Origin: Longimicrobiales bacterium
GTDB taxonomy: Bacteria; Gemmatimonadota; Gemmatimonadetes; Longimicrobiales; Gaopeijiaceae
NCBI GenBank assembly: GCA_041690395.1
Contig: JAWLHJ010000004.1
Coordinates: forward strand, 369,365-433,364
DNA length: 64,000 nt
Direction of reading: 5' to 3'
Shown here: positions 4,931 through 64,000 of the stretch, piece by piece
Numbering within the stretch: the stretch's first letter is position 1
How the letters are laid out: each line of letters begins with the position of its first letter
The notes under the pieces: generated by a model
The model's input: only the letters and a program-made list of their open reading frames with translations
The model's database searches: none
What the model was told of the DNA's origin: nothing
Made by a program: the position numbers and the translations under genes

Positions 4931-5611
4931 TCAATCTTCCTCCGGCCGCACCGTGCGTGCACCCGAGGCGATGTAGACGAGGGCGAGGATGGCGAAGACA
5001 TACGCCTGGATCATCCCGATGAGCAGCCCGAAGGCTTCGAGGACAGCCGGAAAGATGAACGGCGCTACCGTGAGGAGGATGGCCACGATGACCTTCCCGC
5101 TCATGAGGTTGCCGAAGAGTCGGACGGCCAGGGCGAGGGTGCGGGACAGCTCCCCGATGATGTGGAAGGGGGCCATGAAGAAGCTGGGCTGCACGTACCG
5201 CCTGAGGTACCTACCCACACCTTCGTGGGCGATGCCGAAGAGGGGTACCGCAACGAACACGCATGTGGCCAGCGCTGCGGCAGTGGACAGGGAGGCGGCC
5301 ACGACCTGGACTCCGGGAATGGCGCCCAGGAGCGTCGAGACCGCGATGAAGAGGAAGAGGGTGCCGACAAAGGGCAGGTACCGGTCCGGGTCCTCGGGCA
5401 CGGCTTCGTCGATCTGCTTGCGGATCTGCAACACCACGATCTCCAGGATGGCCTGGCCCCGGCCGATCTCCGCCCCCGTGCCGAGAGCCCGGGTGATGAG
5501 CCAGGATCCGGCCACCATGACCAGCATGGTGAGCCATGTGAAGACGAGAGTCGCGTTGACGGTCACGAACCGCCACTGCCAGTAGACCAGCCCATCGGGC
5601 GTCAGCTCCAT
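4931..5611 (-). CDS. atpB: N-ATPase a subunit
   Basis: ELSRTLALAVRLFGNLMSG and GMIQAYVFAILALVYI. ATG at 5611. Confidence 0.96.
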   Translation of the reverse strand: MELTPDGLVYWQWRFVTVNATLVFTWLTMLVMVAGSWLITRALGTGAEIGRGQAILEIVVLQIRKQIDEAVPEDPDRYLPFVGTLFLFIAVSTLLGAIPGVQVVAASLSTAAALATCVFVAVPLFGIAHEGVGRYLRRYVQPSFFMAPFHIIGELSRTLALAVRLFGNLMSGKVIVAILLTVAPFIFPAVLEAFGLLIGMIQAYVFAILALVYIASGARTVRPEED

Positions 5612-9744: not shown

Positions 9745-10298
9745 CGCGAGGCTTCCTCCTGGTGAGTGGTCGTGGGGTCGGCGGGCCCGGCGGGCGAGTC
9801 GGCGACGGAGTTCTCCCGGACCTGCTCCGAGGTCAACCCGAACATCGGCGGGGCGGACGCTCCGATCAGGCCGAGCATGAGGTAGAGCTGGCCACGGTGG
9901 TGTACCTCGTGCTCCACCATCGCGCGGAGCCATTTCCAGGTGGTGAGGGTCACCCCGGCCGGGGTGCCGCACTTCCGCCGGAGCGCGTCGGCGTCGAGCC
10001 CCCGGAAGATCTCCATGGCCTCGGCATGACGCGCCTCGAAGTACGCCCTCACGGCGTCCGGCCCGTCCGCAAGCTCGGGCCCGTGCCCGGGATAGGAAGA
10101 CGGGCGGCCGGCCACGTTCTCGGCGAACATGTAGCGCTCGATCGCGGCCACGTGGCGGACGAGATCGGCGAAGCTGAAGCGGCCGGGCGCCGGCCGCCAA
10201 TCCATGTGCTCGTCGGGTATGCGGGTCACCACGCGGCGCGTCCGGTCCCGAATGCCCTCGTAGTACTCGAGGAACACGTCGACGGAAGGAATCTCCAC
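9741..10298 (-). CDS. DinB family protein
   Basis: DLVRHVAAIERY and MVEHEVHHRGQLY. GTG start at 10298. Confidence 0.9.
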   Translation of the reverse strand: MEIPSVDVFLEYYEGIRDRTRRVVTRIPDEHMDWRPAPGRFSFADLVRHVAAIERYMFAENVAGRPSSYPGHGPELADGPDAVRAYFEARHAEAMEIFRGLDADALRRKCGTPAGVTLTTWKWLRAMVEHEVHHRGQLYLMLGLIGASAPPMFGLTSEQVRENSVADSPAGPADPTTTHQEEASR

Positions 10299-10299
10299 G

Positions 10300-11232
10300 T
10301 CAATCTCCGGTTCTGGCTTCGAGAGCGTGGACGACGGCCGCCATGTCGGCCCCGCCGAGTCCGAGGACGGCGGTCTCACGGTACAGCGCGTGGCACGCAT
10401 CGAGAAGCGGCGTTTCGATGCCGGCGGCGCGGGCGGCCGCGGCGATCAGGTCGTTGTTCTTCAGGACGTCCGCGATGGCCGCCTGGGCATCGAAATCCCG
10501 CGCGACGAGCTTCTCCGCCTTCACCCGCGATACCTCGCTCGCCATCGGGCTCGCGTTCACCAGGGCCAGGAAGACGTCGAGATCGAGCCCCTGACGCTCG
10601 GCGAAGTGCATGGACTCCGCCAGCCCGGTGACCATCGTGATCAGGAAGACGTTGACGGCGAGCTTCATGGTCAGCGCGCTGGGCACCGGGCCGCATTCGA
10701 TCACCGCCTTCCCGACGGGCGCGAGAAGAGGGCGCAGTTCCCCGACGTCCCGGGGATCCCCGGCAGCCATCACCACCAGACGACCCTTCTCCGCCGGGTC
10801 TCTCGATCCGGAGACAGGGGCCTCCACGTAGGAGCCGCCCGCCGCGTCGATCTCGTCGCCCAGCCGTCGCGAATACTCGGGCGAGGTCGTGCCCATGTGC
10901 ACGATCAGGTGCCCGCCCACCCGCCGGTCGAAGTCGGCGCGCCCACGGCCCAGGACGGCGTCGATGGCCGCACCGTCCGCCAGCATCAGGAGCACGACGC
11001 GCGCTCGGGCGAAGATCTCGTCGACGTTCTCCACGATGCTCGCGCCGTCCTCCACGAGCGGTGCGCATCGCTCGGGCGACCGGTTCCACACCACCAGCGG
11101 CGTTCCCGCGCGGGCCAGGTTGCGGGCCATCGGAAAGCCCATGAGCCCCGTGCCGATGAAGCCTGTCTCCCTCGCCGAACGGCTCACCGTCCCCTTGCTC
11201 ATGCTCCCGTCGCTCACGTTCCCCTCGCTCAC
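10300..11232 (-). CDS. NAD(P)-dependent oxidoreductase, 3-hydroxyisobutyrate dehydrogenase family
   Basis: [16 protein letters not shown]ossmann motif, EAPVSGS, MKLAVN. Four possible starts between 11232 and 11187. Confidence 0.92.
11182..11232 (-). repeat. Degenerate 15-bp tandem repeat at the gene junction
   Basis: Minus strand reads GTGAGCGAGGGGAAC / GTGAGCGACGGGAGC / ATGAGCAAGGGGACG / GTGAGC. Confidence 0.7.
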
Positions 11233-47237: not shown

Positions 47238-47776
47238 CACGCGAAGAACTCGAACACGCCATCCGCGCAGCCTGCGACGTTGCCGATGACACCGAACTCT
47301 TCGTCTTTGGATCCCAAGCCATCCTGGGAGAGCACCCCAATGCTCCCCCGCGCCTGAGAGCGTCCGTAGAGGTCGACGTGCAGCCCGTGAACAAGCCAGA
47401 AGCGATCGACGCTATCGACGGAGCACTCGGAGAGCTCTCGATCTTTCACTCGACGTACGGCTTCTACGTACATGGAGTATCGCTCGAGACTGCAAGGCTT
47501 CCGGTCGGATGGAAGGAACGCACGGTTCCCGTCTCCCACGTCGTGGGAACCCGTGGAAACACAGGATATTGCCTCGAATCCCACGACCTCGCAGCCAGCA
47601 AGCTTGCGGCCTTTCGCGATAAGGACCGGGACTTCGTAAGGATCCTCCTAGTGGAGGAGCTGGTTGACGCGGGCACCTTGAAGACGCGGATCGATGACCT
47701 CGGACTCCCGCAGGACGAAAGCTCGCGGCTGGGCGCCTGGGTGGACCGGACGGTCCGTGACCTTCATGGGCGCTGA
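47234..47776 (+). CDS. DUF6036-like nucleotidyltransferase (putative toxin)
   Basis: LEHAIRAA..FVFGSQAILG..SVEVDV, GELSIFHSTYGFY, HDLAASKLAAFRDKDRDF. ATGA coupling to the upstream gene. Confidence 0.8.
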   Translation: MTREELEHAIRAACDVADDTELFVFGSQAILGEHPNAPPRLRASVEVDVQPVNKPEAIDAIDGALGELSIFHSTYGFYVHGVSLETARLPVGWKERTVPVSHVVGTRGNTGYCLESHDLAASKLAAFRDKDRDFVRILLVEELVDAGTLKTRIDDLGLPQDESSRLGAWVDRTVRDLHGR

Positions 47777-47812
47777 GGGACTCGAACCCCCGACCCCCTG
47801 CTTGTAAGGCAG
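47767..47812 (-). tRNA. 3' fragment of tRNA-Val(TAC), the att site of the integrated element (not an intact tRNA)
   Basis: Minus strand CTGCC-TTACAA-GCAG-GGGGTC-GGGGGTTCGAGTCCCTC-AGCGCCC-A gives the anticodon arm, T arm and 3' acceptor strand. No matching 5' GGGCGCT or D arm upstream. Confidence 0.9.
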
Positions 47813-47976: not shown

Positions 47977-49302
47977 GTGAGTAACCTGACGAAGAGATCC
48001 GTGGACGGCGCCTCGCCACCCGAGCGCAAGCCGGGCGAGTCGGACCAGAGCTACCGGAAACGATGGGCGTGGTACAGCGACCTGGAGGTCCCGGGGTTCG
48101 GCGTGAAGGTCTACGGCAGCGGCAGGAAGGTCTACGCGCTCCGCTACCGAACTCAGAGCGGCCGGCAGCGGATGTATACCCTGGGCAAGCACGGTGCGCT
48201 GACCATCAAGGAAGCGCGAGACCACGCGCGTGCTAAGAAGGTCGAGATCCTGGATGGGGAGGATCCTCAGGCCAAGAAGCAACGCGAAGCCGTCGAGATC
48301 CGCACGGTCGAGAAGCTCGTCACCCGGTGGATCGAGGACTACGCCAAGAGCCATCGAAAGCGGTGGAAGGAGGACAAGGGCCGCCTGGATCGTCACGTGA
48401 AGCCGAAGCTGGGCCAACTCTCCCTCGAGGATCTCACCCGGGATGTGCTCGCCGCATGGCACCGATCCCTCGGCAAAGGCACGCAGATCCAGGCGAACCG
48501 ATGTCTGGAGACGCTCCGCGCGGCATGGAGATGGGCCGACGGAGAGGGTCTACTGCCGGAAGGTATCCTGGACCCCACCAGGAGCATTAAGAAGTTCCGT
48601 GAGCGCAGTCGGGACCGCTGGCTCAGAAAGCCAGAGGTGAAGCGGCTCATGGAAGCCGTGGCCAAGCAGAGTGACGACTACGTCCGTGCTGCAATTCCAC
48701 TGTTCCTGCTGACCGGCCTTCGGAAGCGTGAGCTTCTGAACGCCCGATGGGAGAACATCGATCTTGAGCGCGGAGAGATTCGCTTGCCTGAGACGAAATC
48801 GGGGGTCGCTCAGGTCCGACTGCTCCGGCCGCGGGCGGTTCAAATCCTGACTCATCTTCCCCGGGCGAGTGAGAGCCCCTTCGTGTTCCCGTCGCCGCAG
48901 GACCCCATGAAGCCACGAGACGACATCAAGAAGCCCTGGGCCGAGATCCGAGAAAAGGCTGGTCTCCCCAGCGTCACGTTGCACGATCTGCGTCGAACGG
49001 CCGGCTCCCTCATGGCACAGGCCGGAATCCCCCTACAGGTGATAGGAAAGGTGCTCGGGCACTCACACCCCGGCGTCACCAAGCTCTACGCGCGTCTCGC
49101 AAGCGAGAACGAGCGCCAGGCGTTGGACACCCTCTCCGACGAGCTTGAGGGAGTCCTCGGGCTCACAGAGGATTCTGAGGCCGAGGAGTCCCGTTCGCTC
49201 GAGGAGAGCCTCCGCGCCGTGCTAGAATCGTCGGCGGGGGATCCCAAGGCGCTCCAGGCGGGTCTTCGGGACCTTGGATTCCGCTCACCGGTCGAGGCCT
49301 GA
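47977..49302 (+). CDS. int: Tyrosine integrase with N-terminal arm-binding domain
   Basis: SDLEVPGFGVKV..YTLGKHGALTIKEAR. Catalytic residues in TGLRKRE, ETKSG, HDLRR, LGHS, TKLYA. Confidence 0.95.
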   Translation: MSNLTKRSVDGASPPERKPGESDQSYRKRWAWYSDLEVPGFGVKVYGSGRKVYALRYRTQSGRQRMYTLGKHGALTIKEARDHARAKKVEILDGEDPQAKKQREAVEIRTVEKLVTRWIEDYAKSHRKRWKEDKGRLDRHVKPKLGQLSLEDLTRDVLAAWHRSLGKGTQIQANRCLETLRAAWRWADGEGLLPEGILDPTRSIKKFRERSRDRWLRKPEVKRLMEAVAKQSDDYVRAAIPLFLLTGLRKRELLNARWENIDLERGEIRLPETKSGVAQVRLLRPRAVQILTHLPRASESPFVFPSPQDPMKPRDDIKKPWAEIREKAGLPSVTLHDLRRTAGSLMAQAGIPLQVIGKVLGHSHPGVTKLYARLASENERQALDTLSDELEGVLGLTEDSEAEESRSLEESLRAVLESSAGDPKALQAGLRDLGFRSPVEA

Positions 49303-50336: not shown

Positions 50337-50561
50337 ATGGCATCGCAGGATCTCGAAGACCGAACTACCACCCTGAGTCCCGCCGAGGCCGCCCGGCGCC
50401 TCGGCCTCAAAGAGTCCACCCTCAGAAACATGCGCTGGAGGGGTGATGGCCCCCCGTTCGTCCGGGTTGGTCGCCTGTGCCGTTATCGGCTTGTGGACCT
50501 CGATCGCTGGCTAGCGAGCAGGGTGAGGACTTCCACCTCGGATGTCGGCCGCAATGGGTGA
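50337..50561 (+). CDS. AlpA/excisionase-like HTH protein
   Basis: LSPAEAARRLGLKESTLRNMRWRGDGPPFVRVGRLCRYRLVDLDRWL; GGAG SD. Confidence 0.9.
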   Translation: MASQDLEDRTTTLSPAEAARRLGLKESTLRNMRWRGDGPPFVRVGRLCRYRLVDLDRWLASRVRTSTSDVGRNG

Positions 50562-52443
50562 CCAGGCCGCGCTTGCCACTTCGGGGGCAGGGAGAGGTAG
50601 CGGTGATCGGAAGCTCCGGGATTCACTGGGGCTGGAGCTCGGATTCACCCAAGACTCCCGAACCGGGATCTGGTGGGGGCCCTGTCACGAATGCGGCGAT
50701 CGGCGGGCCTCGGTTAGCACCACCTCGTGGTCGTGTCCACAGTGCGGACCGCGAACGCTCGAGGCAACGGCGGTATTGGCATCATTGGACGAACTGGAGA
50801 GCTGGCCGGAGCGCCCGGACGTCCCCGGTTTCGCCATTCCCGAGCCGTTACCCCTCGATGCACTCCCAACCGTAGCTCGCTCGGCAGTCGCGTCTGTCGC
50901 GGAATCCCTCCAGGTACCGAGCGACCTTCCTGCACTTTTTGCGATCTTATGCGGGGCCGCCGCGATCGGGGACCGTGTAAGCGTGCGTATCCGGTCCACA
51001 CAAGTGGAGCCCTTAGCCCTGTATGGAGTTGGAATCGCCGCACCGGGCGAGCGAAAGAGTCCGGTGTTCGCACGCATGTGCCGGCAACTGTACGACTGGC
51101 AGAAGAGAGCCACGCTGAGGGAGCAGCCACTCCAGCGCGCTGCGCGCGACCGAGTCGATGCCCTCAACACGAGACTGGCTTCACTCAAGAAAGCAGCGGC
51201 AAAGGATCCCGCTGCACTCGACGAGATGGAAGACGCGAGGCGTGAGCTCGACGCCGCGGAGCGGGCTGTTCCTGCCTCCTCTTGGTTGATCGTGGACGAC
51301 GTGACGCCCGAAAAGCTGGCGATGGAGATCGCCGATCAGGGCGGGCGCGCAGCAATCTTCGCTGCTGAGGGGGACGTCCTCCGGATCTTCGCGGGTCGGT
51401 ATGGCAAGGGCGATCCACGTGCGGACCTGTTGAAGAAAGCCATCAATGGTGAGCCCACGCGCGTGTCGCGCGTCGGCAGGGAGACGATCTGGCTTCCGAG
51501 GCCGATCCTAACGGTCGGGCTGATGATCCAACCCTCGGTCCTGGGGTCTCTGGACAATCGAGACAGTCTCGAAGGGGAGGGAGTATTTGCACGGTTCCTC
51601 TTCGTGCAGCCTGAGAGCAACTTGGGATGGCGCCTGACGGGCCGAGAGATCCCGCCTCCGGACCTCGAGGCGGAGAGGAGGTTTGGCCACGCCCTGGAAC
51701 GCCTTCTCGACGTGGCTTCCAGCGAGGTTCTCGAGTCCGGGGAGCGCGTACCCCATATCATCGAACTGTCCGACGATGCGGAGAAGATTCTGTTCGCATG
51801 GGAAAGGGAGATCGAGGGCATGCTCGCCCCCGGCGGCCGGCTTCGATCCATCTCCGGATGGAGTTCAAAGCTGGTCGGGTACACGTGCCGGATCGCGGCC
51901 ATCTTGCAGCTACTGGACCGGGCATCCCGTGGCGAAGCGCTCCCAGGTGGTCATGTCGGGCCGAGTTACGCCGAAGGGGCGGTTCGCATCGCTCGTGCCC
52001 TCACATCTCACGCCATCAGGGTTCTTGGAGAGCTCGCGACATCTCCAGACTCCGCCGATCTGGCATACGTCTGGAGAAAATGCCAAGAATTGAGCCTCCG
52101 CGCTGCACGGAAGCCGCACGACACCCAGAACGACGAAGGTCTAACCCTCACCACACTTCGTCGAGCGATGGGGCGCAAGAGTATCAAGCGCGCAGAAGAC
52201 CTAGCACGCCTTGTTCGCGAACTCGAGCAGCGGAGTTGCTTGAGACTGCTTCCGCAAGGGCCGACTGGCGGCCGGCCAAAGGCAGACCGAATCGTGCTTC
52301 ATCCGATGTTTCGGTGCGGAACCGCAGAAAATGCAGAAAGTCCCTCCGCAGACACTCGCAACACCCTTTCTGCAGTTTCTGCAGTTGTTTCGGAAGGTTG
52401 GCAGAACAAATCTGACCCACTCGATGTCCTGGATGGAGCATAG
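50554..52443 (+). CDS. YfjI/DUF3987 replication-associated P-loop protein with N-terminal Zn finger
   Basis: CHEC..CPQC, PLDALP, APGERKSP, DDVTPEKL, VSRVGR, GVFARFLF. Confidence 0.85.
   Translation: MGDQAALATSGAGRGSGDRKLRDSLGLELGFTQDSRTGIWWGPCHECGDRRASVSTTSWSCPQCGPRTLEATAVLASLDELESWPERPDVPGFAIPEPLPLDALPTVARSAVASVAESLQVPSDLPALFAILCGAAAIGDRVSVRIRSTQVEPLALYGVGIAAPGERKSPVFARMCRQLYDWQKRATLREQPLQRAARDRVDALNTRLASLKKAAAKDPAALDEMEDARRELDAAERAVPASSWLIVDDVTPEKLAMEIADQGGRAAIFAAEGDVLRIFAGRYGKGDPRADLLKKAINGEPTRVSRVGRETIWLPRPILTVGLMIQPSVLGSLDNRDSLEGEGVFARFLFVQPESNLGWRLTGREIPPPDLEAERRFGHALERLLDVASSEVLESGERVPHIIELSDDAEKILFAWEREIEGMLAPGGRLRSISGWSSKLVGYTCRIAAILQLLDRASRGEALPGGHVGPSYAEGAVRIARALTSHAIRVLGELATSPDSADLAYVWRKCQELSLRAARKPHDTQNDEGLTLTTLRRAMGRKSIKRAEDLARLVRELEQRSCLRLLPQGPTGGRPKADRIVLHPMFRCGTAENAESPSADTRNTLSAVSAVVSEGWQNKSDPLDVLDGA
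52324..52382. repeat. Inverted 9-bp-period repeats (candidate replication origin)
   Basis: GCAGAAAATGCAGAAAG (52324-52340) and CTTTCTGCAGTTTCTGC (52366-52382) are complementary at 16/17 positions. Confidence 0.65.
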
Positions 52444-53366: not shown

Positions 53367-54173
53367 CTACTCTTCGCCATCCGACCGATCGCACCGGGGC
53401 AGCTTATCCTGCAGGACGATATTGACCGAAGCCACGGCGATTACCGCCGCAGCGATGGCTATTCCCGCGACTTCCTCAGGATCGCCATCGATGAAGAGGG
53501 TGAACCCGGTGTCATCGAACTCGAGAGACTTCGTCTCAATCCTGGGAGCGGGATGCGCCTGAAGAGACAGGAGGTTGTAAAGAGACTTGTGGATCAGCAG
53601 GCTCTGCTCGTCCCCACCGGTAGCCTCGGCAAACTCCTCCGGTAATCTCGTCCGGGACTTGCCGCTCCAGTGAAACTGTCGCCCCTTCTTCTTCGTGCGA
53701 TCGTGCAAGACGGCCTCGAGTGCCTCACTCATTACCTGCGTCTTCTCAGGCACGAATCGGCTCCAGACCTCTGAGTCTTCATCCGCTAAGACAGCGGCGG
53801 ATTTCTGCTCAACGTCCTCTTGATCGACCGCCGCTTGGTTGGCCAACTGCGCCCCGTACTCCCAGTCCAACAGTTCTCCAGCCCGCGCCCGTGCCCCAAA
53901 ATGGTCGTAGTCTGCGTTGCGGGTGCCCAAGAACATCACCTCCTGAGCCGCCTCAAATGCCGACCGTGCCGCTGCGTGCGCGGTACGGGGGACCTGAGAG
54001 TCCCAGAGCAGCCTTACGGCCTTGGCGTGCTGGAACACGTCGCGAGCGAGACCAAGGAGGGCGAGGTCGGGAATCAAGTGGGCTCCGCGCACGCCAGTCG
54101 TGAGGATCGTGTCATGAAGCGACCCTAAGGCCTCGTCCAGGTCCTCGACTGAGCCCTTCACACACACCTCCAT
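53367..54173 (-). CDS. DUF5677-like protein
   Basis: AHAAARSAFEA and SLYNLLSLQAHP motifs; helical. Confidence 0.65.
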   Translation of the reverse strand: MEVCVKGSVEDLDEALGSLHDTILTTGVRGAHLIPDLALLGLARDVFQHAKAVRLLWDSQVPRTAHAAARSAFEAAQEVMFLGTRNADYDHFGARARAGELLDWEYGAQLANQAAVDQEDVEQKSAAVLADEDSEVWSRFVPEKTQVMSEALEAVLHDRTKKKGRQFHWSGKSRTRLPEEFAEATGGDEQSLLIHKSLYNLLSLQAHPAPRIETKSLEFDDTGFTLFIDGDPEEVAGIAIAAAVIAVASVNIVLQDKLPRCDRSDGEE

Positions 54174-54194
54174 GCCTCACAGGAAATCGATGGC

Positions 54195-54284
54195 GACTTC
54201 GAGTTGCTGCTGCAGCGTGCCCGGTGACAGCCAAAGCATAGCGATCCGGTAGAGCGCGACGGCACCAGTCCCTTGTTTGGACGG
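54195..54284 (-). repeat. Degenerate attC-like site (copy 3)
   Basis: Begins just after the HD-nuclease stop: CCGTCCAAAC-aaggg-ACTGGTGCCGTCGCG...CGGATCGCTATGCT...GCAGCAGCAAC. Homologous to copies 1 and 2; the GTTRRRY end is decayed. Confidence 0.55.
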
Positions 54285-54285
54285 G

Positions 54286-56127
54286 TCACGTTCCCTGCCG
54301 CGGCAGCGTAACGGTCGCATAGGCGCCCTTCGTACCCAGGTGCGAGACCTCGAAGTCTTGGTCAGGGATAGTCAGTCGTCGGAACTGACTCCTGATCTGG
54401 GCCTCGGCTTCAGTGTTTCCGCTCTGGGTGTTCTTTGCCTCCACGATCATCAGCACCGGTTGCGATACATCACGAGAGAGTAGGATCGCCAGCCCATCAA
54501 ACTCGGCGACGATCTGCCCGCTCTGTATGACCTCGGTAGATCCCGCAAAGGCGACGATCGCCCCGCGGTAGTCGATCGCCCGCAACGCGGCCTCCAATTG
54601 CACGACCTCATTCAACTGGTCGGCTCCCAAAAGCCCGGACCCCTTCGCCCAGTCCCGATACGTCCCAATCACCTCGGCAGCGCGGGTAGACCCATAGACT
54701 CTGACTACCGGTGACGTCTCAACCGCAGGCAGAGTACGGAGTCGGAAGCGCCTTTGCTCACCAAGGACCTGTGGGAGCAGGAACCTCAACAACGCAAGGC
54801 CGTTTCGCGTCGCACTCGCTGCGGACAGCTGAACGTCGAGCTCTGCAATTCGCGTCTCGAAGTCGAGCAGCTGCTTCCCCACCCTCAGTGCGGCCTTCTG
54901 GCGAACCGAGGTTGACGACGTGCGGGCTAATGCAGCTGTGACCTTCAGGTGTCGATGTCGAGGATCAAAGTCGGCTGCGAATCGACACGACCGGAGGCCG
55001 ACCGCTTGTCGGGCACCGCGCTCCCAGCCCAGGGGGTCCGGCAGAAGCGACGTAGCGAGCGCCGGGTCGAGATCATATGCCAGTTGGACAATCGGGCCGG
55101 TCGGTGTCCCATGCTCGTCCGGAGGACTCGGTGCGGTAAAATGGGTCGAAGCGTCGCGATCAGGGCCCATCAAGTCCCAGAGAGCCCCGATTGTAGCCGG
55201 CTCGGGATCAAGCGCCTCAAGTCGATCGAGGATCTCGTCACCAACCCGAGCATGATTGATGAGTTGGGGCGCCGCCATGTAAACCGTATCTCGCATGACA
55301 CCCTCTAGACGCTCAAGAGCCTCTTGGAACGCAGAGCCCTCAACGAATACATCGGTCAGATAGTGCTCCAAGGAGAAAAAGATCGATGCGAGATCCAGCG
55401 AAAAGGGTACAGGAGCGTAGTGCGAGTCCAGAGCCAAGTAGGTGAGTCGCCTCAGGCTCCGATACAGATTCCATAGCGCGACCAAGCTCTGATCCGTTTC
55501 GCCAGACTGCAGAGTGGTGAACGACCGCAGTATCGCCTGGCAGAAGTCCGCTATCGACGCGCCACCCTGCCTACGCCTGTACCGATCCAGAAGAAACGAG
55601 GCGATCAGGTAGTTGAATTGATAGAGGTTGTTGGTTCTCAACGCGCGATCGAAACGCTCACGATCCGCTTCGGGCAGCCCGGACCGGAATGCGGCCGCCG
55701 AGCGCCGATGGTCGCGGAGATACTTCATGAGAGCGCGCTCGCCGGAGAACGTGCTCGGCAGGTGTCCGATGTTCCCCAGCATCGCAAAGACCATAAGGAT
55801 CTCGCCGTTCGTCGGGTCCTGACCAAGGCCGTCGATTGTACCGAAGGTGTTCCGCCGGCGTCCCAGACTCAGTCCTGCAGGAAGCTGGCCCCGTAGATGG
55901 CACAACTCGGTGATGATGGCCAGCTGCGCCATCAGGTACTCATACCGAGTGTGGTGCGCTCCGGGGAGCACCTGCCGAATGGGTCCGAGTTGATCGATCC
56001 CCTTTAGAGCGCGGACGTGCTCGTATTGCTCCAAGAAGTCGAACACAGTCTTCGCGTACGGGAACAGTCGCACCCGGACGAGGCCGAAGCCCGGCAGGTT
56101 ATAGCGCCAGTATTCCACCGTTGCCAA
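54286..56127 (-). CDS. Catalytically degenerate dNTPase-like HD domain fused to a C-terminal PD-(D/E)xK nuclease
   Basis: LKGIDQLG..PGAHHTRYEY, MLGNIGHLPSTF, RRLTYLALDSHY, C-term AEFDGL...IVEAKN. Start inferred at TTG 56127, just after the attC GTTAGAC. Confidence 0.78.
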   Translation of the reverse strand: MATVEYWRYNLPGFGLVRVRLFPYAKTVFDFLEQYEHVRALKGIDQLGPIRQVLPGAHHTRYEYLMAQLAIITELCHLRGQLPAGLSLGRRRNTFGTIDGLGQDPTNGEILMVFAMLGNIGHLPSTFSGERALMKYLRDHRRSAAAFRSGLPEADRERFDRALRTNNLYQFNYLIASFLLDRYRRRQGGASIADFCQAILRSFTTLQSGETDQSLVALWNLYRSLRRLTYLALDSHYAPVPFSLDLASIFFSLEHYLTDVFVEGSAFQEALERLEGVMRDTVYMAAPQLINHARVGDEILDRLEALDPEPATIGALWDLMGPDRDASTHFTAPSPPDEHGTPTGPIVQLAYDLDPALATSLLPDPLGWERGARQAVGLRSCRFAADFDPRHRHLKVTAALARTSSTSVRQKAALRVGKQLLDFETRIAELDVQLSAASATRNGLALLRFLLPQVLGEQRRFRLRTLPAVETSPVVRVYGSTRAAEVIGTYRDWAKGSGLLGADQLNEVVQLEAALRAIDYRGAIVAFAGSTEVIQSGQIVAEFDGLAILLSRDVSQPVLMIVEAKNTQSGNTEAEAQIRSQFRRLTIPDQDFEVSHLGTKGAYATVTLPRQGT

Positions 56128-56154
56128 CCACCACGACTTGAAGGAGCGTGAGCC

Positions 56155-56246
56155 GTCTAACGTCAGGGGATTCTGCTGCGCCGCCTGTCCGGACACCAGC
56201 GTAGCGTAGCTATCCGTTCTTCCGTGATAGCAGCAATCCATTAGAA
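56155..56246 (-). repeat. attC-like site (copy 1)
   Basis: Minus strand TTCTAAT-GG-ATTGCTGC...GCAGAAT-cccctgac-GTTAGAC. The inner boxes pair with one extra base and the GTTRRRY is perfect. Confidence 0.75.
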
Positions 56247-56360
56247 CGCAACGATGGCACATCGGACCGAAGGGGCTGGCGGGTGCCACCGAACACTAGC
56301 CGACCATGGCAGGGACCGGACCGCTCGGGCCAAAAGTCACAAGAGATCTCGCTGCAGAAC

Positions 56361-57173
56361 TCAGTAGTCCATCTTCAGGTACCGCGTTCCTGTGAACCGA
56401 TCGATGTACGGACCGCTCCTCACGGAGTTCATCAGGTCCCAGTAGCACACCTTCGCATACTCGTTCTCGAGTTCGGGTGGGTACGTGAAGCTGTATCGAG
56501 GATCGTTCACTGACGGGGGCGGCACGTAGGCGCGGTAGAACTCGGGGGCCAGATACTCATGAATGGCCCACCGCACCTCCGTCAACATTTCGGCAAGCGA
56601 GGTGCTGTGGTAGGAGAGAATATCGACGTGAAACCGTTCGTAGAAGTCATCGAGCGCGCGTAGTGAGTCGATGAGCGAGGCGGAGACACCACTTGCCTCA
56701 AGTAGCTTTCGCAACCTCTTGGCGTTCCGTGTTAACCGAGCTGGATTGTGCTTGGAGAGATTGCCACAAATCGCCACGAAGTCGCGGCGACGCAGCGATA
56801 GCGGAACCTCCTCATCGAGGCTTGGAAACCAAGCCTTGACCGTGATCTCGGTGTCGAGCCAAGCAGTGAGATTGGCGACACTGGCGGCGAGCACCTCGCG
56901 AGCTTCGTCTCCGGGTAGCTGCGGATCCGAGGACACGGTTCCCAGTGCATCGAGCAGAGATCCGCGAATACCGACGAGGTCCCGGTCCACCTGCTCAAGC
57001 ATGTCCGCCAACAGCACGCAAAAAAGTGAGCGACGAGTCGGTGATTTGAACGTCGCCTGCGTGATCTCGGGCTCGCCCCCGAAATTGAGCATCTCGTGAT
57101 TCACCATCGAGTTGATCACCTCAATGGTCAATCGCAGCACCACAGCCTCGCGTTCGATCTTTGTGGTGCTCAA
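56361..57173 (-). CDS. Hypothetical protein (cassette gene 2 of 2)
   Basis: 270-aa ORF with atypical codon usage and motif RRDFVAICGNLSKH. Confidence 0.75.
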   Translation of the reverse strand: MSTTKIEREAVVLRLTIEVINSMVNHEMLNFGGEPEITQATFKSPTRRSLFCVLLADMLEQVDRDLVGIRGSLLDALGTVSSDPQLPGDEAREVLAASVANLTAWLDTEITVKAWFPSLDEEVPLSLRRRDFVAICGNLSKHNPARLTRNAKRLRKLLEASGVSASLIDSLRALDDFYERFHVDILSYHSTSLAEMLTEVRWAIHEYLAPEFYRAYVPPPSVNDPRYSFTYPPELENEYAKVCYWDLMNSVRSGPYIDRFTGTRYLKMDY

Positions 57174-57256
57174 TCTGCGGCCTCTGATTCGTATGGAGTT
57201 CTTGCCGTAGCGTGTATCAGGTAACCACGAGCCCGACGCTTTTAACAGGCTCGCTC

Positions 57257-58000
57257 CTATTCGGCCAGTGACTCCATCTCGTCGGCCAGCCTGTTCAAGA
57301 ACGCATCGACTTGGTCGAAGTAGTCGCCAAGGTCCAGAGGAGACACGAACAGGTCCTCGCCGGACAGCGGCGCGTGCACCGCGGTCTTGATCTTCCCGAG
57401 CGGGGACGACGGGTCATTCTTCAGCGCGTCCGGTAAGAAGAGATCGGGCCGCACTTTCCACAGCGACTCTGTCGCGGCACCGTCCGCATGCTTGGTGGCG
57501 TTCGCTACGTGCCGAAGTTCTTCGATTTTGGACCACTCAGGGAAGTCCTTCAAGTCCAGCCCCTGTGCTCCAAACGCCTTCACAATGTTGCTCCCCCTCA
57601 GCAGCGCATGGTCATTCTCGTGCTCCTTTGGAAGTAGTTCCTTCCGCAACAAGAATAGGAGCTTCTGTTCAAGCAGATGATGCAGGGCAACGGCGAACAG
57701 ATTGAGCACGGCTTGCCGGGCGCTCCGCCGCAGGTCGTAGTAGAGGATGCTCTCGTCTCGTGCTGCCTCGTAGTAATCGGCTGGATCGTCATCCGGGTGG
57801 AAGTGCCTCCCGAGTCGTTCCAGTGCCTCCTCGCCCGCGCGCTCTGCCTCATCGTCGATGTTGTCGAACGATGGAAGGGCACGGTCGAGCACAGTCTCAC
57901 GAAGAACGACCACCTCGGGTATGACGATCCTACGGAGATAGTTGGCCCAAAAGGGACCGTTTGCCTTCAGCCCAAGTCCACGGACCTTCGGAAGCGCCAC
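57257..58000 (-). CDS. Hypothetical protein, possibly HEPN-like (cassette gene 1 of 2)
   Basis: Helical 247-aa protein with LHHLLEQ and WSKIEELRHVANATKH. Confidence 0.7.
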   Translation of the reverse strand: MALPKVRGLGLKANGPFWANYLRRIVIPEVVVLRETVLDRALPSFDNIDDEAERAGEEALERLGRHFHPDDDPADYYEAARDESILYYDLRRSARQAVLNLFAVALHHLLEQKLLFLLRKELLPKEHENDHALLRGSNIVKAFGAQGLDLKDFPEWSKIEELRHVANATKHADGAATESLWKVRPDLFLPDALKNDPSSPLGKIKTAVHAPLSGEDLFVSPLDLGDYFDQVDAFLNRLADEMESLAE

Positions 58001-58248: not shown

Positions 58249-59259
58249 TCAAATAGGTCCCAGCATGCTGCGCGTCGTTGAGACGAGATCTATGAATCTG
58301 AGTTCGCCATCGGAAAGCTCTAGGGACCGGGTCCGCCACAGGCGGCGAATGATCCTCTCGGTCAGCCTGCCTGGTGCCATCCGAAACTGGCAATATCCAT
58401 TGATCTGCCCCGCGCCCCGAGAGTTGTTGAACGGGTAAATCCGCGCGCCTGGAGGGACCGGACCGACAGCTACGTTGCGACCTCGGGTCTCACCGTTGAT
58501 GAAGATGAAGATCCCGTCGGCATCGACCGCCACGGCGACAAAGTTTGAGGATTGCCACTCAACCGCCTGAGGGAGGGTGAGCATACCAACGGGTACCGAT
58601 TCCTGGAACCACCGGAAGACGAAGGCTGCCTGGGCGGGCTCGTAGAACAGCTCAGCCTTGCCGGTCAGGTCCATCACGTAGGGGATCTCCCCTGAGTCGC
58701 GGATCGCTTCACTCGACCAGTTGGGCCAAAACTGACCGAGAAACGTCCACGCGAAGGGGTTTCCGCCGTCCAGGAGCCGCGGATCGTTGGGGTTCCAGAG
58801 GAAGCTGGAAGGACTCTTCACCTTGATGCCGGGTACCTCCTTACGGAAGAACTCCCAGTCGTGCGTCAGGAGGAAGTTGACCTTCCCCGCTAGTGAGTCA
58901 GCCAGCACCTGTTGGTCCTCGCCGGAGAGTCTCGCGGCCCAGGGCGGGAGACATGACCGGTCGCCATCGGCGACACGCTCGACCGTCGTGTGCTGGGCGA
59001 GCTGTAATAGACCATCCGCGAAGTCGCCCACAAGGTTGGGGGCGTTGGTACGCAGGACCCGTAGCGCCATATCCTCGACGTGCCGGCCGAGCACGACCGT
59101 CCCCTGATCCAGGGAGGCGAGGCACTGGTTGCTATACGAGCCGAGATCCAACAAGCCGGCCAGGAGAACGCTAACGTCAGGAGCGATTCTGGACTGCCGG
59201 ACCGTCGGGTGCACGGCTTCTACGATCTCCCTTGGTACCGAATCGAACCGATCAGCCAC
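58249..59259 (-). CDS. PIN-domain protein with C-terminal LamG/concanavalin-like domain
   Basis: PIN: IAPDVSVLLAGLL ... EDQQVLADSLAGKVNFLLTHDWEFF..GIKVKSPSSFL. LamG-like: NFVAVAVDADGIFIFINGE...QFRMAPGRLTERIIRRL. Confidence 0.68.
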   Translation of the reverse strand: MADRFDSVPREIVEAVHPTVRQSRIAPDVSVLLAGLLDLGSYSNQCLASLDQGTVVLGRHVEDMALRVLRTNAPNLVGDFADGLLQLAQHTTVERVADGDRSCLPPWAARLSGEDQQVLADSLAGKVNFLLTHDWEFFRKEVPGIKVKSPSSFLWNPNDPRLLDGGNPFAWTFLGQFWPNWSSEAIRDSGEIPYVMDLTGKAELFYEPAQAAFVFRWFQESVPVGMLTLPQAVEWQSSNFVAVAVDADGIFIFINGETRGRNVAVGPVPPGARIYPFNNSRGAGQINGYCQFRMAPGRLTERIIRRLWRTRSLELSDGELRFIDLVSTTRSMLGPI

Positions 59260-59647
59260 AATACTCCGGGGTTTCGATCTAACAAGGGATCCTGCAGGTC
59301 TGCGTATCGCCGTTCTGCTGAGCGCCTTTTGGCGGGGCTCCCGGAACGTGGCACCAAGAGTTAATGACTGGAGGTGGACGTTCTCCCAAGAGTAGTTCCG
59401 TGGGTCTAGTCTCGACAGGATCTGCGACTCCTCCGCTTCCCAAGGATCACTTCCCTACCCAGCATCGGGCCCGTGGCAGCCCCACCACCTGCTAACCCAG
59501 CAGGGGTTCCGCCACGGCTAAGCCCTTACCTCTTATTGTCATAGAGCACCCCAGTGGCATGCGCGTGCACAAACCGTGCACCCAGGATGGCGCTGGGCGG
59601 CTGGAACCGCGCTCGCGGTTCGCTTTCCCGAACGCGGGAGATAGCTC

Positions 59648-61309
59648 TCAACGAGTGGCCACATGGTGCACGATCGAGTCGGCCAATCGCTCCGAAATGT
59701 CCTGTAGATCCCGAAAGCGTTCCTCAAGCTCGTCGCAGAGCGCCATGAGCTCGGTTACCCTTCCAACGATGCGGCGCTGTTCATCGAGGGGCGGCAAGGG
59801 AATCGGGCAGGCTCCGAAATAATCGCGCGGCACCCGTTGCTGTCCCGCAGTGCCCGTCATTCGTGGCACACCCGCCTCGATAAAGGTCGCAGACTTCAGG
59901 AACACGAGGGCGTAACTCGGCTCAAGAACACCCTGGAACGGTCGAAGAACATGTAGCTCGGTGGTGCCCGCGCCTATTCCGTTCGGCAACCCTGAAACGA
60001 CAACGGATTTTCGGTTCTGGAAGCACGGGGTGATCTTGGCCAACGCGATATCCCCGTCGGCCAGATGCGTGTAGCCCTTCTTGATCTCCTTCCAAAGGCG
60101 TAGCTCCGCCGTGTGCCCGGGTACGAAACCGTCATCGATTGCGGCCATGGGGACGAAGCCGGCCTCCGTTTCATCCGCCACCTCGTTTCTTGGGCCGACG
60201 ATCCCGAGATCCTGCAGTTCCACCCAGCGCCATGTCTCGGGCACCTCGAAGGTCGGGGGTGGATCAGGGATCCTGCATCGGCGTGGCTTCCGCCCCGAGT
60301 ACGTCTTGAGCGCCTGCGCTGCTCGCACCAAGAGCTCGGCGGCAGACTCCTCGCCCGCCCGCTGCTCCACCAGCCTGCCTCTCACTGCCAGATCGAGGAT
60401 GGTCCGCCTGAGGTCGTCTACGCTCTCGGGCGTAGTGAACAGCGACTCCCAGTTGTCACGCATCCGGACCCACTCGCCGTCAGCTAGGAGGGCCTCGAGC
60501 GAGGATACACGGGCCTGGTCGCGAACAGTAGCCGTCACCGCCTCGACTCGGGTGAGCTCTTCTAGAATGGCTTGGAGCCCACCAACCGTCCGGACGATTT
60601 CGTGCTGTACCTCGAGCGGTGGTAGAGGCAGCAAGATCAGAACCATCCGGGTAAGGCCGAGATCCCGGTTTCCGGTACCGTGTGTGTACTCCTGCGCTTG
60701 TTCATAGCAGAAGGGGCTGTTCAGTGCTAAAGCCAGATACTCGGGGGCTACCAATTCCAGATCAGTCCGAAGCACAGCAACGTGGACCCAGACAGAGAAA
60801 TCCATGGATAGGTCGTTGACCACCGCGACCCCCGTCGTCCCCCCTTTGGTGTACAAGATGTCGCCTGGGCGCGGGCGGATGCGCTTACAAAACGACTCGT
60901 GGTCCTCGCGAGAAACATACTTGGTGTTCGTCAGGTCGATGCGCCCCGAGCTGAGCTCGCCAGCCGAAAGCATAGGGACGGCCTCTGGATGCGGGCCGGG
61001 AACCCAGTTCGGCGAGAAGTGGGGCCCGTCCGCGACCTCGTAGCACGCCTCACCAAGGCGAATCCATTTCCAGCCGGATGGGAGGTCGAACGGAAGATCA
61101 CCGGGAAGATCGGGCAGAGCTTTCTTACGTCGGAGTTCCTTGGCTTTGATCTTTCCCTGTCTCCGCCGACGCATTTCCTCGACGATCTCCTCAGCGGACG
61201 ATGTATAGGGCACGGAGCCACCGATGCCCCCTGATATCGCGAGCATACTCGCCAAGTCCCGGAGAGAATCGATCGCCAAGAAGTCGAGAGCGGGTCCGAT
61301 GACCATCAC
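59648..61309 (-). CDS. hsdS: Type I R-M specificity subunit
   Basis: Two TRDs (PFDLPSGWKWIRLGE; FEVPETWRWVELQD), LPPLEVQHEIV / LPPLDEQRRIV, LRRTILDLAVRGRLV. Confidence 0.93.
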   Translation of the reverse strand: MMVIGPALDFLAIDSLRDLASMLAISGGIGGSVPYTSSAEEIVEEMRRRRQGKIKAKELRRKKALPDLPGDLPFDLPSGWKWIRLGEACYEVADGPHFSPNWVPGPHPEAVPMLSAGELSSGRIDLTNTKYVSREDHESFCKRIRPRPGDILYTKGGTTGVAVVNDLSMDFSVWVHVAVLRTDLELVAPEYLALALNSPFCYEQAQEYTHGTGNRDLGLTRMVLILLPLPPLEVQHEIVRTVGGLQAILEELTRVEAVTATVRDQARVSSLEALLADGEWVRMRDNWESLFTTPESVDDLRRTILDLAVRGRLVEQRAGEESAAELLVRAAQALKTYSGRKPRRCRIPDPPPTFEVPETWRWVELQDLGIVGPRNEVADETEAGFVPMAAIDDGFVPGHTAELRLWKEIKKGYTHLADGDIALAKITPCFQNRKSVVVSGLPNGIGAGTTELHVLRPFQGVLEPSYALVFLKSATFIEAGVPRMTGTAGQQRVPRDYFGACPIPLPPLDEQRRIVGRVTELMALCDELEERFRDLQDISERLADSIVHHVATR

Positions 61310-62769
61310 GATTCCATGGCTTCTTCCAACACGGTCCGGACCGTGGCGCGAAGTCGGTCTATTTCCAAGCGGACGGCCGCAAGATCTCTGAGCAACTCAT
61401 CGGGATCATCGTGGGATACCGAGCCAGCATCCGGATGGCTGATGTCGAGGTTATAGCCACGCTCCACCACCTCTCCAATCGGTACCAACCACGCCCGCTC
61501 TCCGCTCTGCCGCGCCTCCCACCATGCTTTCTCTGAATCAAATTCCTCGATCCGTATAGGCTTAGTCTTTGAATAGGACTTGTAGCCCTCAGGGTAGGGA
61601 TGCTCGTAGTACCAGATCTCCTTCGTCGGCTCCCCCTTGGTGAAGAAAAGGATATTCGTGCGGGTGGGCGTATACGGCTGAAAGACCCCCTTAGGCAACC
61701 GGACAATCGTGTGGAGGTTGCAGTCCCTAAGCAGCTTCTCCTTGATCCTCGTCTTGATGCCCTCGCCGAAGAGCGTTCCGTCGGGCAGGACAATCGCGGC
61801 CCGTCCCCCGTCCTTCAGCAGTTCCATCACCAGCACCAAGAAGAGATCGGCGGTCTCGCGAGTCCGAAACTCTGATGGGAAGTTGTTCTCGATCCCGTCC
61901 TCCTCCATGCCACCGAATGGTGGATTCGTTACAATGACATCGACCTGGTCCTTAGGTCCATAGTCCCGGAGCGGCTTTGTCAGTGTGTTTCCGTGGCGAA
62001 TGTGAGAGGGTATGGCGATCCCGTGCACCATCATGTTTGTAACGCAAAGCAGGTGCGGGAGCCCCTTTTTCTCAATTCCCCGCACGCTTCGCTCTAGAAG
62101 CGCCTGCTCGTCGGTCGTCTCCACCTGCCTCTTCATGTGTTCGTAAGCACAGGTTAGGAAGCCGCCGGTTCCGCAGGCGGGATCAAGAACAACCTCCCCT
62201 AGCTGCGGGTTCACCAAGTCCACCGCGAATTGGGTCACCGCGCGCGGCGTGTAGAACTCCCCGGCGTTCCCAGCCCCTTGGAGATCCGTGAGAATCTGCT
62301 CGTAGATCTCCCCAAACAGGTGGCGGGTCTTCGCCTGATTGAAGTCGATATCCGACTGCAGCCGATCGATTACCTGGCGCATCAGGGTGCCCGACTTCAT
62401 GTAATTGTGGGCATCCTCGAAGACGCTCCGAATTATCGCGGCCCGGTCGTGCTCTTCACCCTCAAACCCCGCCAAGTCGAGTCCTTTGAGCGTCGGGAAG
62501 AGCTCTCCATCCACGAAGGCCAGAAGCGCGTCACCGGTGAGCGAGTCCTTTCCCAGGCGTTCGGAGTCCGCCCAGGAGTGCCAGCGGAGCCCCTCCGGGA
62601 CTGGAGACCGATACCCATCCCGGGTCAACTCCAACTCCTCCTCGAGATCGCTGAAGATCTTCAGAAACAACATCCATCCGAGTTGCTCGATGCGCTGGGC
62701 ATCACCCGCCACACCCGCGTCCTTCCGCATGATCTTCTGCATGGACTTGATCGTTCTTGAAAGCGACAT
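61306..62769 (-). CDS. hsdM: Type I R-M N6-adenine methyltransferase
   Basis: GEFYTPR, DPACGTGGFL, TNPPF, VLPDGTLF. Confidence 0.97.
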   Translation of the reverse strand: MSLSRTIKSMQKIMRKDAGVAGDAQRIEQLGWMLFLKIFSDLEEELELTRDGYRSPVPEGLRWHSWADSERLGKDSLTGDALLAFVDGELFPTLKGLDLAGFEGEEHDRAAIIRSVFEDAHNYMKSGTLMRQVIDRLQSDIDFNQAKTRHLFGEIYEQILTDLQGAGNAGEFYTPRAVTQFAVDLVNPQLGEVVLDPACGTGGFLTCAYEHMKRQVETTDEQALLERSVRGIEKKGLPHLLCVTNMMVHGIAIPSHIRHGNTLTKPLRDYGPKDQVDVIVTNPPFGGMEEDGIENNFPSEFRTRETADLFLVLVMELLKDGGRAAIVLPDGTLFGEGIKTRIKEKLLRDCNLHTIVRLPKGVFQPYTPTRTNILFFTKGEPTKEIWYYEHPYPEGYKSYSKTKPIRIEEFDSEKAWWEARQSGERAWLVPIGEVVERGYNLDISHPDAGSVSHDDPDELLRDLAAVRLEIDRLRATVRTVLEEAMES

Positions 62770-64000
62770 CTAGGCTACTTCGTCCGAGTAGAGTTCCGAT
62801 TCAAGCTCGTGAATCGCATCGAGGTACTTCTGCTTGCCGCCAAAGGCCCTTACCAACTCGATCGGCGTCCCGAGATCCGAGATCGGTCGGAGTTGGAGTA
62901 CGGCGAACTCCTCGATCTGCTCGACCCCTTGGTCGGCATACCGCTCGAGCAGGGCATCCAGTACGGCGCGGGCGGTCCCTTCGTACTTCGTAAACACGTC
63001 TCGCCTCTTCACCGCCTCGGCCCGCTCCTTGCGAGTGAGGGCAGGACGGTCGTACGCGACGTGGCAGATGAGATCAAACGGGTCGTAGTCGGGACCCACC
63101 ATATCCGCCAGGGCTTCCAGTAGAACGCCCTGCTCTCTGAGTTCAGCGATGACCGCCTGCTTCCGATCCGCTGTCTTCCAAGAGGTCAAGAAGGCGTCAA
63201 GGGAAGTGAATTGCTCCCCGACCGTGCGGCGTGTGTAGTCCTTCAGCGACTCGGTGACGAGCTTGCCGTCCTTGTCGTAGTACTGGACGCGCTCGGCGAC
63301 GATGCCGAAGCGCTGCCCGCCGACGACATACCGTAACCGAGGCTCGGGATCCACCGGATCGACGATGACAGGATCCTCTTCGTCGTCTGGGGGCTTGATG
63401 GGCTTGTCATCGCCTGGCTGGTAGACCTGAAGCGGCGGCCCGTCCCAATCGGGATCAGCGAAGAGCTCCGTCGCTTTCCGGAAATCGATGATCGTGAAGA
63501 ACTGCTTGCCGTAGTCCTCACGGATTCGGGTGCCCCGCCCCACGATCTGCTTGAACTCCGTCATCGACCCGATGCGACGGTCCAGGACAATTACGTGACA
63601 GGTCTGCGCGTCCACCCCGGTGGTCATCAGCTTCGAGGTCGTGGCGATGACGGGGTAAGGCTCCTTCGGGTTGATAAAATGATCGAGCTGGGCCTTCCCC
63701 TCCTTCTCATCCCCCGTGATCCGCATGACATACCGGTGGTCGGCGGTCACCAGCGGCTTGTTCTCGGAGACGTTCACGAGCGCTTCCCGCATCCGCTCAG
63801 CGTGGTTGATGTCCTCACAGAAGACGATGGTCTTGTGCATAGGGTCGGTGCTGTGGAGGAACTCGGAGACACGCTCCGCCACACGCTTCGTTCGCTCCGG
63901 GAAGACGATGGACCTGTCGAAGTCCATTTGGTTGTAGATGCGGTCCTCGATCACCTCACCCTTGTCGTCTACCTGCCCCGCCGTCGGTCTCCAACCCTGG
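62770..64000 (-). CDS. hsdR: Type I R-M restriction subunit (EcoAI/EcoEI-like), 5' part outside the window
   Basis: KTIVFC, TTSKLMTTGVD, FKQIVGRGTR, and an EcoEI-type C-terminus DPFDLICHVAYD..FGGKQKY. Confidence 0.95.
   Translation of the reverse strand, partial: QGWRPTAGQVDDKGEVIEDRIYNQMDFDRSIVFPERTKRVAERVSEFLHSTDPMHKTIVFCEDINHAERMREALVNVSENKPLVTADHRYVMRITGDEKEGKAQLDHFINPKEPYPVIATTSKLMTTGVDAQTCHVIVLDRRIGSMTEFKQIVGRGTRIREDYGKQFFTIIDFRKATELFADPDWDGPPLQVYQPGDDKPIKPPDDEEDPVIVDPVDPEPRLRYVVGGQRFGIVAERVQYYDKDGKLVTESLKDYTRRTVGEQFTSLDAFLTSWKTADRKQAVIAELREQGVLLEALADMVGPDYDPFDLICHVAYDRPALTRKERAEAVKRRDVFTKYEGTARAVLDALLERYADQGVEQIEEFAVLQLRPISDLGTPIELVRAFGGKQKYLDAIHELESELYSDEVA

Follow-up and report, generated by a model that had tools for sequence, protein, structure and literature searches.

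One gene in the window (the whole 64,000-nucleotide stretch of DNA that we analyzed) encodes a protein that combines a VapC-type PIN domain with a LamG/concanavalin-like jelly-roll. We propose, with a probability of roughly 0.5, that this is a self-restrained RNase, encoded by a single gene, that a ligand of the jelly-roll would release so as to arrest the infected cell, probably as a defense against phage. The sequence-only reading of this DNA had named both domains, and this two-domain architecture is almost certainly genuine, because relatives of the protein match both families in Pfam and because the AlphaFold2 model and solved folds agree. That reading had overlooked a conserved tail (residues 313-333). 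The tail is what is new here: a third conserved element, with an amphipathic C-terminal helix that is predicted to sit on the PIN domain.

The gene lies at 58249..59259 on the minus strand. Its reading frame is open over 401 codons, and we place the start at a GTG codon, giving an ORF of 336 amino acids, because the closest relative (P0003) likewise starts with MADRF. The motifs that had suggested a PIN domain (PDVSVL, EDQQVL, and THD) are all in the ORF. The protein had been expected to be cytoplasmic, without a signal peptide, and this holds: by hydropathy there is no membrane segment or hydrophobic leader (the best 19-residue mean is 1.28, and the N-terminal windows reach 0.41).

The query protein has no matches in Pfam (at E ≤ 1), in the PADLOC-DB 2.0 profiles (at E ≤ 0.1), or in NCBIfam; it has a single match in PHROGs (E = 0.008), and it has only chance matches to the sequences in the PDB. 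Similarly, 18 relatives had no matches in PADLOC-DB 2.0 at E ≤ 0.01, and no relatives were found in phage, plasmid, E. coli, and IMG/VR collections. Two protein searches identified 16 relatives at 35-51% identity to the query, of which 3 are partial. Searching 1.84 billion representatives gave 25 hits, with the query counted in, and some of these are distant full-length relatives. (Two of the 25, P0035 and P0041, were spurious hits to repeat proteins and were discarded.) A third protein search added 3 members of a distant clade. The order of the domains, PIN and then LamG, is retained down to 23-28% identity. For the distant clade (P0036, P0040, P0042-P0044, and P0034), the profile alignment reaches residue 248 (probability 99.2), and the model has its elements in the same order as the query (pLDDT 67), with a putative jelly-roll. 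In this clade, E62 of the query is replaced by R or Q in all 3 members that were checked, and the tail motif differs from the query's. The AlphaFold2 model of the query itself, from 17 sequences, has a pLDDT of 87.8 and a pTM of 0.79.

In this model, the PIN domain corresponds to residues from about 22 to 155 (58795..59196, minus strand). A search of 48,161 solved chains confirmed the assignment: the region matches chains of VapC, FitB, and PcrIIC1 with Z scores of 9.8-11.6 (10.6 for the PcrIIC1 chain 8wmm_G), with 115-133 residues aligned and an rmsd of 2.5-4.0, and the alpha/beta fold with a five-stranded sheet is present. The matches to PIN_3 (PF13470) are weaker. The query has none, and 10 of the 14 aligned members match, all of them weakly (best E = 1.2e-4). 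The distant relatives P0033 and P0037 exceed the cut-off for PIN_3 (E = 9e-14 and 1e-14), while the close relatives fall below it. Active PIN nucleases have at least four acidic residues, which follow S1, S2, and S4 and also mark the beginning of H4 (excerpt of PMC5499597). The query's acidic residues (D28, E62, E114/D115, and D134) fit the positions given in that excerpt, and they are conserved in the rows of the alignment (D28 in 29/29, E62 in 27/32, D115 in 34/34, and D134 in 32/34). Judging from these residues, the protein is quite likely to be an active RNase.

The jelly-roll and its closing helix span residues from about 165 to 312 (58324..58767, minus strand) and form a candidate ligand-binding module. 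Among the same 48,161 solved chains, residues from about 155 to 315 match CBM40, pentraxins, and other ConA-like jelly-rolls with Z scores of up to 14.1 (12-14.1 for CBM40 and pentraxins). The top match is the CBM40 domain 6er4 (Z = 14.1, rmsd 2.8, 145 residues aligned), and the closing helix is present. Foldseek also gives a ConA-like jelly-roll for the C-terminal half, so structure prediction and fold searches bear out the earlier assignment of this half as well. Laminin_G_3 (PF13385) is matched by 10 of the 14 aligned members, all weakly (best E = 3.5e-5), and not by the query; the best score, for P0021, is 25.2 bits, compared to Pfam's gathering score of 27.6. P0037 matches Laminin_G_3 at E = 0.003, and P0016 bears a precomputed PF13385 label. 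In a protein-cluster atlas, which gives leads only, similarity to Laminin_G_3 clusters was 0.84-0.85, and the C-terminal half scored 0.94-0.95 to unnamed clusters of 124-161 amino acids. The concanavalin fold is also the fold class of the eukaryotic SPRY/TRIM sensors, but no SPRY chain is among the 50 fold matches listed, and the query's domain is LamG-like. Receptor-binding domains of clostridial neurotoxins were among the fold matches, at 6-16% identity. We rejected a kinship to these toxins because pentraxins and CBM40 score equally well or better, so the matches reflect the shared ConA-like jelly-roll. The sequence-only reading had also pointed to the motif RIY..RAL..EI, which we take to be a LamG pattern. 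The motif does have a counterpart in the protein, most likely GQINGYCQFR...LTERIIRRLW (residues 284-308), and not RIYPF at residues 273-277.

We also asked how quickly the jelly-roll changes. Across the 16 core relatives, the mean identity is 0.447 for the PIN domain and 0.398 for the jelly-roll; of the 120 pairs, 33 are better conserved in the jelly-roll than in the PIN domain. In one pair, dN/dS is 0.108 for the jelly-roll and 0.044 for the PIN domain. The divergence of the two halves is correlated (Spearman correlation of 0.80 across 378 pairs). In other words, hypervariability of the jelly-roll was not seen among these relatives, and its divergence exceeds that of the PIN domain by just a small margin. 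Nor does the jelly-roll subfamily occur behind another effector in a longer protein among the 25 hits. If the jelly-roll does sense something, its ligand is probably conserved. We put a sensor role for the jelly-roll at a little under even odds.

The tail (58261..58323, minus strand) consists of a linker and an amphipathic helix. In the AlphaFold2 model, the closing helix of the jelly-roll is at residues 301-309, and a further helix (residues 317-333) lies beyond it. L315 is conserved, D317 and E319 are present in 30/31 and 29/31 rows of the alignment, and hydrophobic residues occupy positions 322, 325, and 326 in 90-100% of rows. To predict how the two halves interact, residues 8-157 and 164-336 were folded as two chains, along with 3 controls. 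The split prediction scored 0.78, versus 0.00 for the best control; the docked chains are halves of one protein, and this dock could be an echo of VapBC complexes that have been solved. The runs agree on at least 90% of their contacts, and the pLDDT of the partner is at least 84. Of 157 solved complexes, 116 reach the mark that we used for the dock score, as do 2 of 215 mismatched pairs; for this alignment, these counts are only roughly valid.

In the predicted dock, residues 313-333 lie on PIN helices 29-43 and 64-73, beside the active site. F322, L325, and V326 pack on S30, L33, L37, and V68, and E319 packs on A34, S41, and S43, adjacent to D28. On the PIN side, the predicted contacts extend to residues 112, 114, 133-135, and 148-156. 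On the other side, the predicted interface is nearly all tail and includes residues 309-316, while the core of the jelly-roll contributes just three residues (176, 238, and 291). Several of the residues in the dock are highly conserved (S41 in 29/31 rows, S43 in 31/31, and L33 in 31/31). In VapBC1 from C. crescentus, a helix of the antitoxin lies on helices of VapC at a "lateral" site and arginines reach into the active site (excerpt of PMC5389673). By analogy, the tail would occupy the position that is equivalent to VapB's lateral site. The tail has no invariant arginine of the kind that VapB inserts into the active site: K or R is found at positions 328-333 in 7-33% of rows. S/T-D-x-E is a helix-capping motif, and its presence at residues 316-319 is compatible with a plain helix cap. 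Also, P0037 lacks most of the tail, and the tail's role may be merely structural. Still, the predicted dock is a possible route for the C-terminal half to control the nuclease, and we consider self-restraint by the C-terminal part to be somewhat probable.

The sequence-only reading had noted that there was no antitoxin gene next to this one. The 388-bp gap between hsdS and the PIN-LamG gene (59260..59647) has no ORF from an antitoxin family, the short ORFs in the gap have no family matches, and a search of the gap for a sigma70-like promoter or a terminator gave no match. As a control, we used 15 genes for stand-alone PIN proteins that were found by the same profile in 401 genomes from the family of G402. 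The 12 loci of relatives reduce to 9 independent loci: L003 and L004 duplicate L005, and L010 duplicates L011. L011 was omitted from the antitoxin count because its gene lacks the N-terminus. Upstream genes for MazE or RHH antitoxins were found at 12 of 15 loci for stand-alone PIN proteins and at none of 9 fusion loci (P = 0.0003, Fisher exact test, with the caveat that kin are not independent); at L002, L008, and L009, less than 500 bp of upstream sequence is available. Of the 47 upstream ORFs that were listed, the scan covered 18/18 from the fusion loci and 17/29 from the control loci. At these 9 loci, the fusions have no separate upstream antitoxin (AbrB/MazE, RHH, HTH, or Phd) of the kind that is coupled to the toxin in type II VapBC systems. 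Pfam also finds no DNA-binding domain in the fusion proteins that could serve for autoregulation.

The PIN-LamG gene is on a 17.8-kb integrative island at a tRNA-Val gene. The left border of the island is a 46-bp copy of the 3' end of tRNA-Val(TAC) (47767..47812, minus strand), and the identical 46-bp repeat is within the intact tRNA-Val just beyond the window (434885-434930 of contig C4, which corresponds to 65521-65566). The GC content is 0.61 for the island and 0.69-0.70 for its flanks. The island encodes a tyrosine integrase (47977..49302, plus strand; PF00589 with E = 1e-27, and PF13356), and family matches identify an excisionase-like HTH_17 gene and a DUF3987 helicase-like gene (50337..52443, plus strand). 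In a comparison to the empty site in 4 congeners, the matches were the tRNA repeat and short pieces only. (Elsewhere in the host genome, G000, contig C1 has 17 tRNA genes within 3.3 kb, at 919395-922679.)

Directly upstream of the PIN-LamG gene, and in the same orientation, are genes for a Type I restriction-modification system: hsdS, hsdM, and the 3' part of an EcoEI-like hsdR (59648..63954, minus strand). Downstream are four co-oriented cargo genes (53367..58000, minus strand), which encode a DUF5677 protein (268 amino acids) and proteins of 667, 270, and 247 amino acids; labels other than DUF5677 are weak leads. The 667-amino-acid protein (54286-56289, minus strand) has no family match and a weak likeness to HD domains at its N-terminus (E = 0.24). 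A D...EAK stretch near its C-terminus is reminiscent of restriction-type nucleases. The genes for the 270- and 247-amino-acid proteins (56361-58000, minus strand) are unannotated, and the latter protein has a weak match to a HEPN-type PADLOC family (E = 0.012) and a match to phrog_19541 (E = 2e-8).

Some of the relatives are also near tRNA genes. In L006, a 4.9-kb stretch (48-4992) runs from a full tRNA-Cys to a copy of its 3' part. Besides the PIN-LamG gene, it carries DMP19-like, HTH_17, TIGR04255, and PDC-M32A-like genes, and there is no integrase among the ORFs that were scanned. Fragments of tRNA 3' ends are also found in L012 and L007, and in L013, the PIN-LamG gene begins 180 bp after tRNA-Ile. 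Overall, 3 of 10 fusion loci have a tRNA copy within 1.5 kb, versus 0 of 15 VapBC loci (P = 0.052). The proteins from L006 and L007 are 95% identical, and their surrounding genes are unrelated; the PIN-LamG gene moves alone. The L013 copy of the fusion gene (9995-10970) has two frameshifts and is either a pseudogene or an assembly error. In L010 (47-1042) and L011 (33-1448), the catalytic region of a tyrosine integrase is fused in frame to the PIN-LamG gene, which picks up at about residue 76. This junction removes D28 and E62, and an RHS-repeat gene is nearby.

Several of the neighbors suggest defense. Genes with Schlafen domains adjoin the fusion gene in L002 and L005 (these are 57% identical to each other), and at one locus the Schlafen gene overlaps the fusion gene by 4 bases. 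CapH- and CapP-like genes are nearby in L005, as is an OLD-like ATPase in L007. The Schlafen AlbA_2 gene of L005 (8528-9499, minus strand) is next to the CapH- and CapP-like pair, within a low-GC insert of 5 kb; by eye, its C-terminal half looks beta-rich, and it might be a pSlfn5-like fusion of RNase and sensor. We looked for a constant partner, and no neighbor recurs at three or more of the 10 loci. When all 121 flanking ORFs were scanned alike, 5 of the 10 fusion loci and 5 of the 15 VapBC loci had genes from PADLOC families within 1.2 kb, which is no clear enrichment (P = 0.44); the VapBC controls are themselves mobile, and several of the fusion contigs are short. The link to defense islands that had been suggested from the sequence is seen in the window, with its Type I system and its att-bounded island, but across the fusion loci it does not rise statistically above the VapBC control. 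We think a role against phage is slightly favored.

The PIN-LamG family is rare. Matches were found in 1 of 401 genomes from a sample of the host's phylum and in 1 of 401 genomes from a sample of its order, and in both samples, the match is the host itself. There is no match in 4 congeners of the host. Strong matches are present in 2 of 401 genomes from the family of G402 and in 1 of 391 from its order. (These scans scored five candidates per genome.) The two genome matches that are named are metagenome-assembled genomes of Gemmatimonadaceae. The family is under purifying selection (dN/dS = 0.076 for the pair from L006 and L007). In a phylogenetic tree, the 26 PIN domains from fusions are on one side and the 15 stand-alone PIN domains are on the other (support of 98/92), but the outgroup is narrow, and a single origin of the fusion PINs is not proven by this tree.

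How might this protein work? We suggest that the C-terminal helix folds back on the PIN domain and likely keeps the RNase off, so that the tail would act in cis as the VapB helix does in trans. The jelly-roll would likely bind a ligand that is associated with infection, which would lever the tail off of the PIN domain. Once released, the PIN domain might, like VapC toxins, cleave tRNA or rRNA and thereby arrest the infected cell. The sequence-only reading had likewise proposed a phage component as the ligand and abortive infection as the outcome, and its interpretation as a whole is partly supported. This is our best explanation because of the two folds, the catalytic residues, the missing antitoxin, the predicted dock and the conservation of its residues, the genomic context, and the precedents. 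It is weakened because there is no clear enrichment of defense genes, because the jelly-roll is conserved and was not seen on other effectors among the 25 hits, and because the tail has no invariant arginine. In a more specific version, which we consider doubtful, an intracellular immune receptor with a concanavalin fold would read a conserved molecule of the invader, unlatch the VapB-like helix of its own tail, and fire the VapC-type RNase. The ligand could be a phage protein or a nucleic acid that is glycosylated, or else a sugar that has been released.

Another explanation is that the tail is a structural clamp and that the nuclease is non-toxic and always ready. It would be steered to its substrate (such as invader RNA or modified nucleic acid) by the jelly-roll and a basic helix (R305, R306, R309, and R311), and no cell would be killed. 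This would account for the basic patch beside the PIN interface, which is conserved (K or R in 70-97% of rows), for the inclusion of residues 309-316 in the predicted interface, for the fixed arrangement of the domains (pTM 0.79), for a jelly-roll that is conserved rather than fast-changing, and for a tail without an invariant arginine. But related PIN domains in the same bacterial family are mostly paired with antitoxins (12/15), which implies that the fold is usually toxic, and the core of the jelly-roll has only three predicted contacts with the PIN domain (176, 238, and 291), so we think that this explanation is unlikely. Alternatively, the protein could be a fused toxin and antitoxin that stabilizes the island or responds to general stress, with the C-terminal antitoxin lost by proteolysis or unfolding and without any sensing of phages. 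The location on an island, the predicted dock in cis, and defense neighbors that are no more common than around VapBC loci would all fit. However, post-segregational killing via differential decay would be hard for a fused pair, a full and conserved jelly-roll of 150 residues would be superfluous for such a role, and we found no DNA-binding domain for autoregulation. We view this as improbable.

The remaining explanations seem more remote. The protein could be an accessory to a neighboring defense protein (the Type I system, Schlafen, or OLD), much as PcrIIC1 is a PIN-fold protein that works with Cas9. PcrIIC1 is among the fold matches (8wmm_G, Z = 10.6), and related Schlafen genes adjoin 2 of 10 loci, one of them with the 4-base overlap. 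Yet no partner is common to more than 2 of 10 loci, and the near-identical copies in L006 and L007 have unrelated neighbors, so this idea is a long shot. We give about as little credence to the idea that the gene is decaying orphan cargo, or that it encodes a toxin that is neutralized by an antitoxin encoded elsewhere. Broken copies do exist (the gene in L010 and L011 is truncated at about residue 76, where it is fused in frame to an integrase, and L013 has two frameshifts), and the genome has another PIN-like gene. But the frameshifts in L013 are possibly assembly errors, the architecture is kept down to 23-28% identity, and dN/dS is 0.076.

A defense role for this self-restrained RNase is plausible but unproven. 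In bacteria, the concanavalin/LamG fold is mostly found in surface proteins and phage-tail proteins. If our main reading is correct, then this fold joins the intracellular sensors of phage, which would fill a gap that is stated in an excerpt of PMC8195603, and the idea of immune sensors with lectin folds could be tested with one 1-kb gene. It would also illustrate how a two-gene VapBC pair can turn into a single protein that is gated by a ligand and in which all that is left of the antitoxin is a tethered helix. The predicted dock provides specific latch residues that can be tested.

We found no description of a PIN-LamG fusion in the literature that we searched, which was mostly non-subscription, with supplements covered for PMC13092281 only. 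The coverage included parts of PMC7824862, bioRxiv 10.1101/2024.01.29.577857, and PMC11980606, and a term search of PMC13434031 gave no match. Lectin-fold domains, namely NPCBM and FGS, have been proposed as intracellular sensors in bacterial conflict systems, and according to the excerpted text of PMC8195603, conflict systems with SPRY-like (concanavalin-fold) domains had yet to be seen in prokaryotes. A ParA-CBM lectin system and PIN-cystatin-like and Ig-pFHA-PIN modules have also been predicted (partial text of bioRxiv 10.64898/2026.10.19.760177). As in our proposal, these conflict sensors and the eukaryotic SPRY/TRIM proteins couple an intracellular lectin fold to an effector and are proposed to recognize molecules of invaders. 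However, the prokaryotic sensors, as excerpted, use the discoidin, C-type-lectin, or AMPK1_CBM fold, or else pair the PIN domain with something other than a lectin, while the query is LamG-like.

The query resembles VapBC/PIN_3 pairs in its VapC-like fold, its four acidic residues, and the predicted packing of a helix on the PIN helices (excerpts of PMC5499597 and PMC5389673). Unlike those pairs, it lacks both a DNA-binding domain and an antitoxin that is encoded separately, and the helix is in cis. Three single-gene systems are closer in their logic. DS-3, from DefensePredictor, is also one protein of about 340 amino acids with a PIN RNase and without a cognate antitoxin. It is proposed to be auto-inhibited, and its catalytic residues are required for phage defense (excerpt of PMC13092281). 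But the PIN domain of DS-3 is split (residues 1-75 and 276-327 by HHpred), and that excerpt lists no lectin domain for DS-3, while the query's PIN domain is contiguous (residues 22-155) and has a jelly-roll and a tail behind it; we set these two apart by their domain layouts. In the fused toxin-antitoxin CapRel SJ46, the C-terminal part both restrains the N-terminal toxin and senses phage, and the logic that we propose is alike (excerpt of PMC9712102). However, that toxin (toxSAS, RelA/SpoT-like) pyrophosphorylates tRNA, while the query has a PIN domain, and sensing and autoinhibition were shown for CapRel, while for the query, the contact is only predicted. pSlfn5 has a similar layout: a single gene encodes an RNase whose C-terminal beta-sandwich is the sensor of a phage protein (excerpt of PMC13056530). 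But pSlfn5 combines a Schlafen nuclease with an Ig-like fold, instead of PIN with a ConA-like jelly-roll, and its sensor drives the divergence of its homologs, whereas the query's jelly-roll is conserved almost as well as its nuclease. Overall, the PIN-LamG architecture is uncatalogued in the libraries that we tested, and it is distinct from DS-3, CapRel, and pSlfn5 because each of these differs from it in the toxin, in the fold of the sensor, or in how the PIN domain is laid out.
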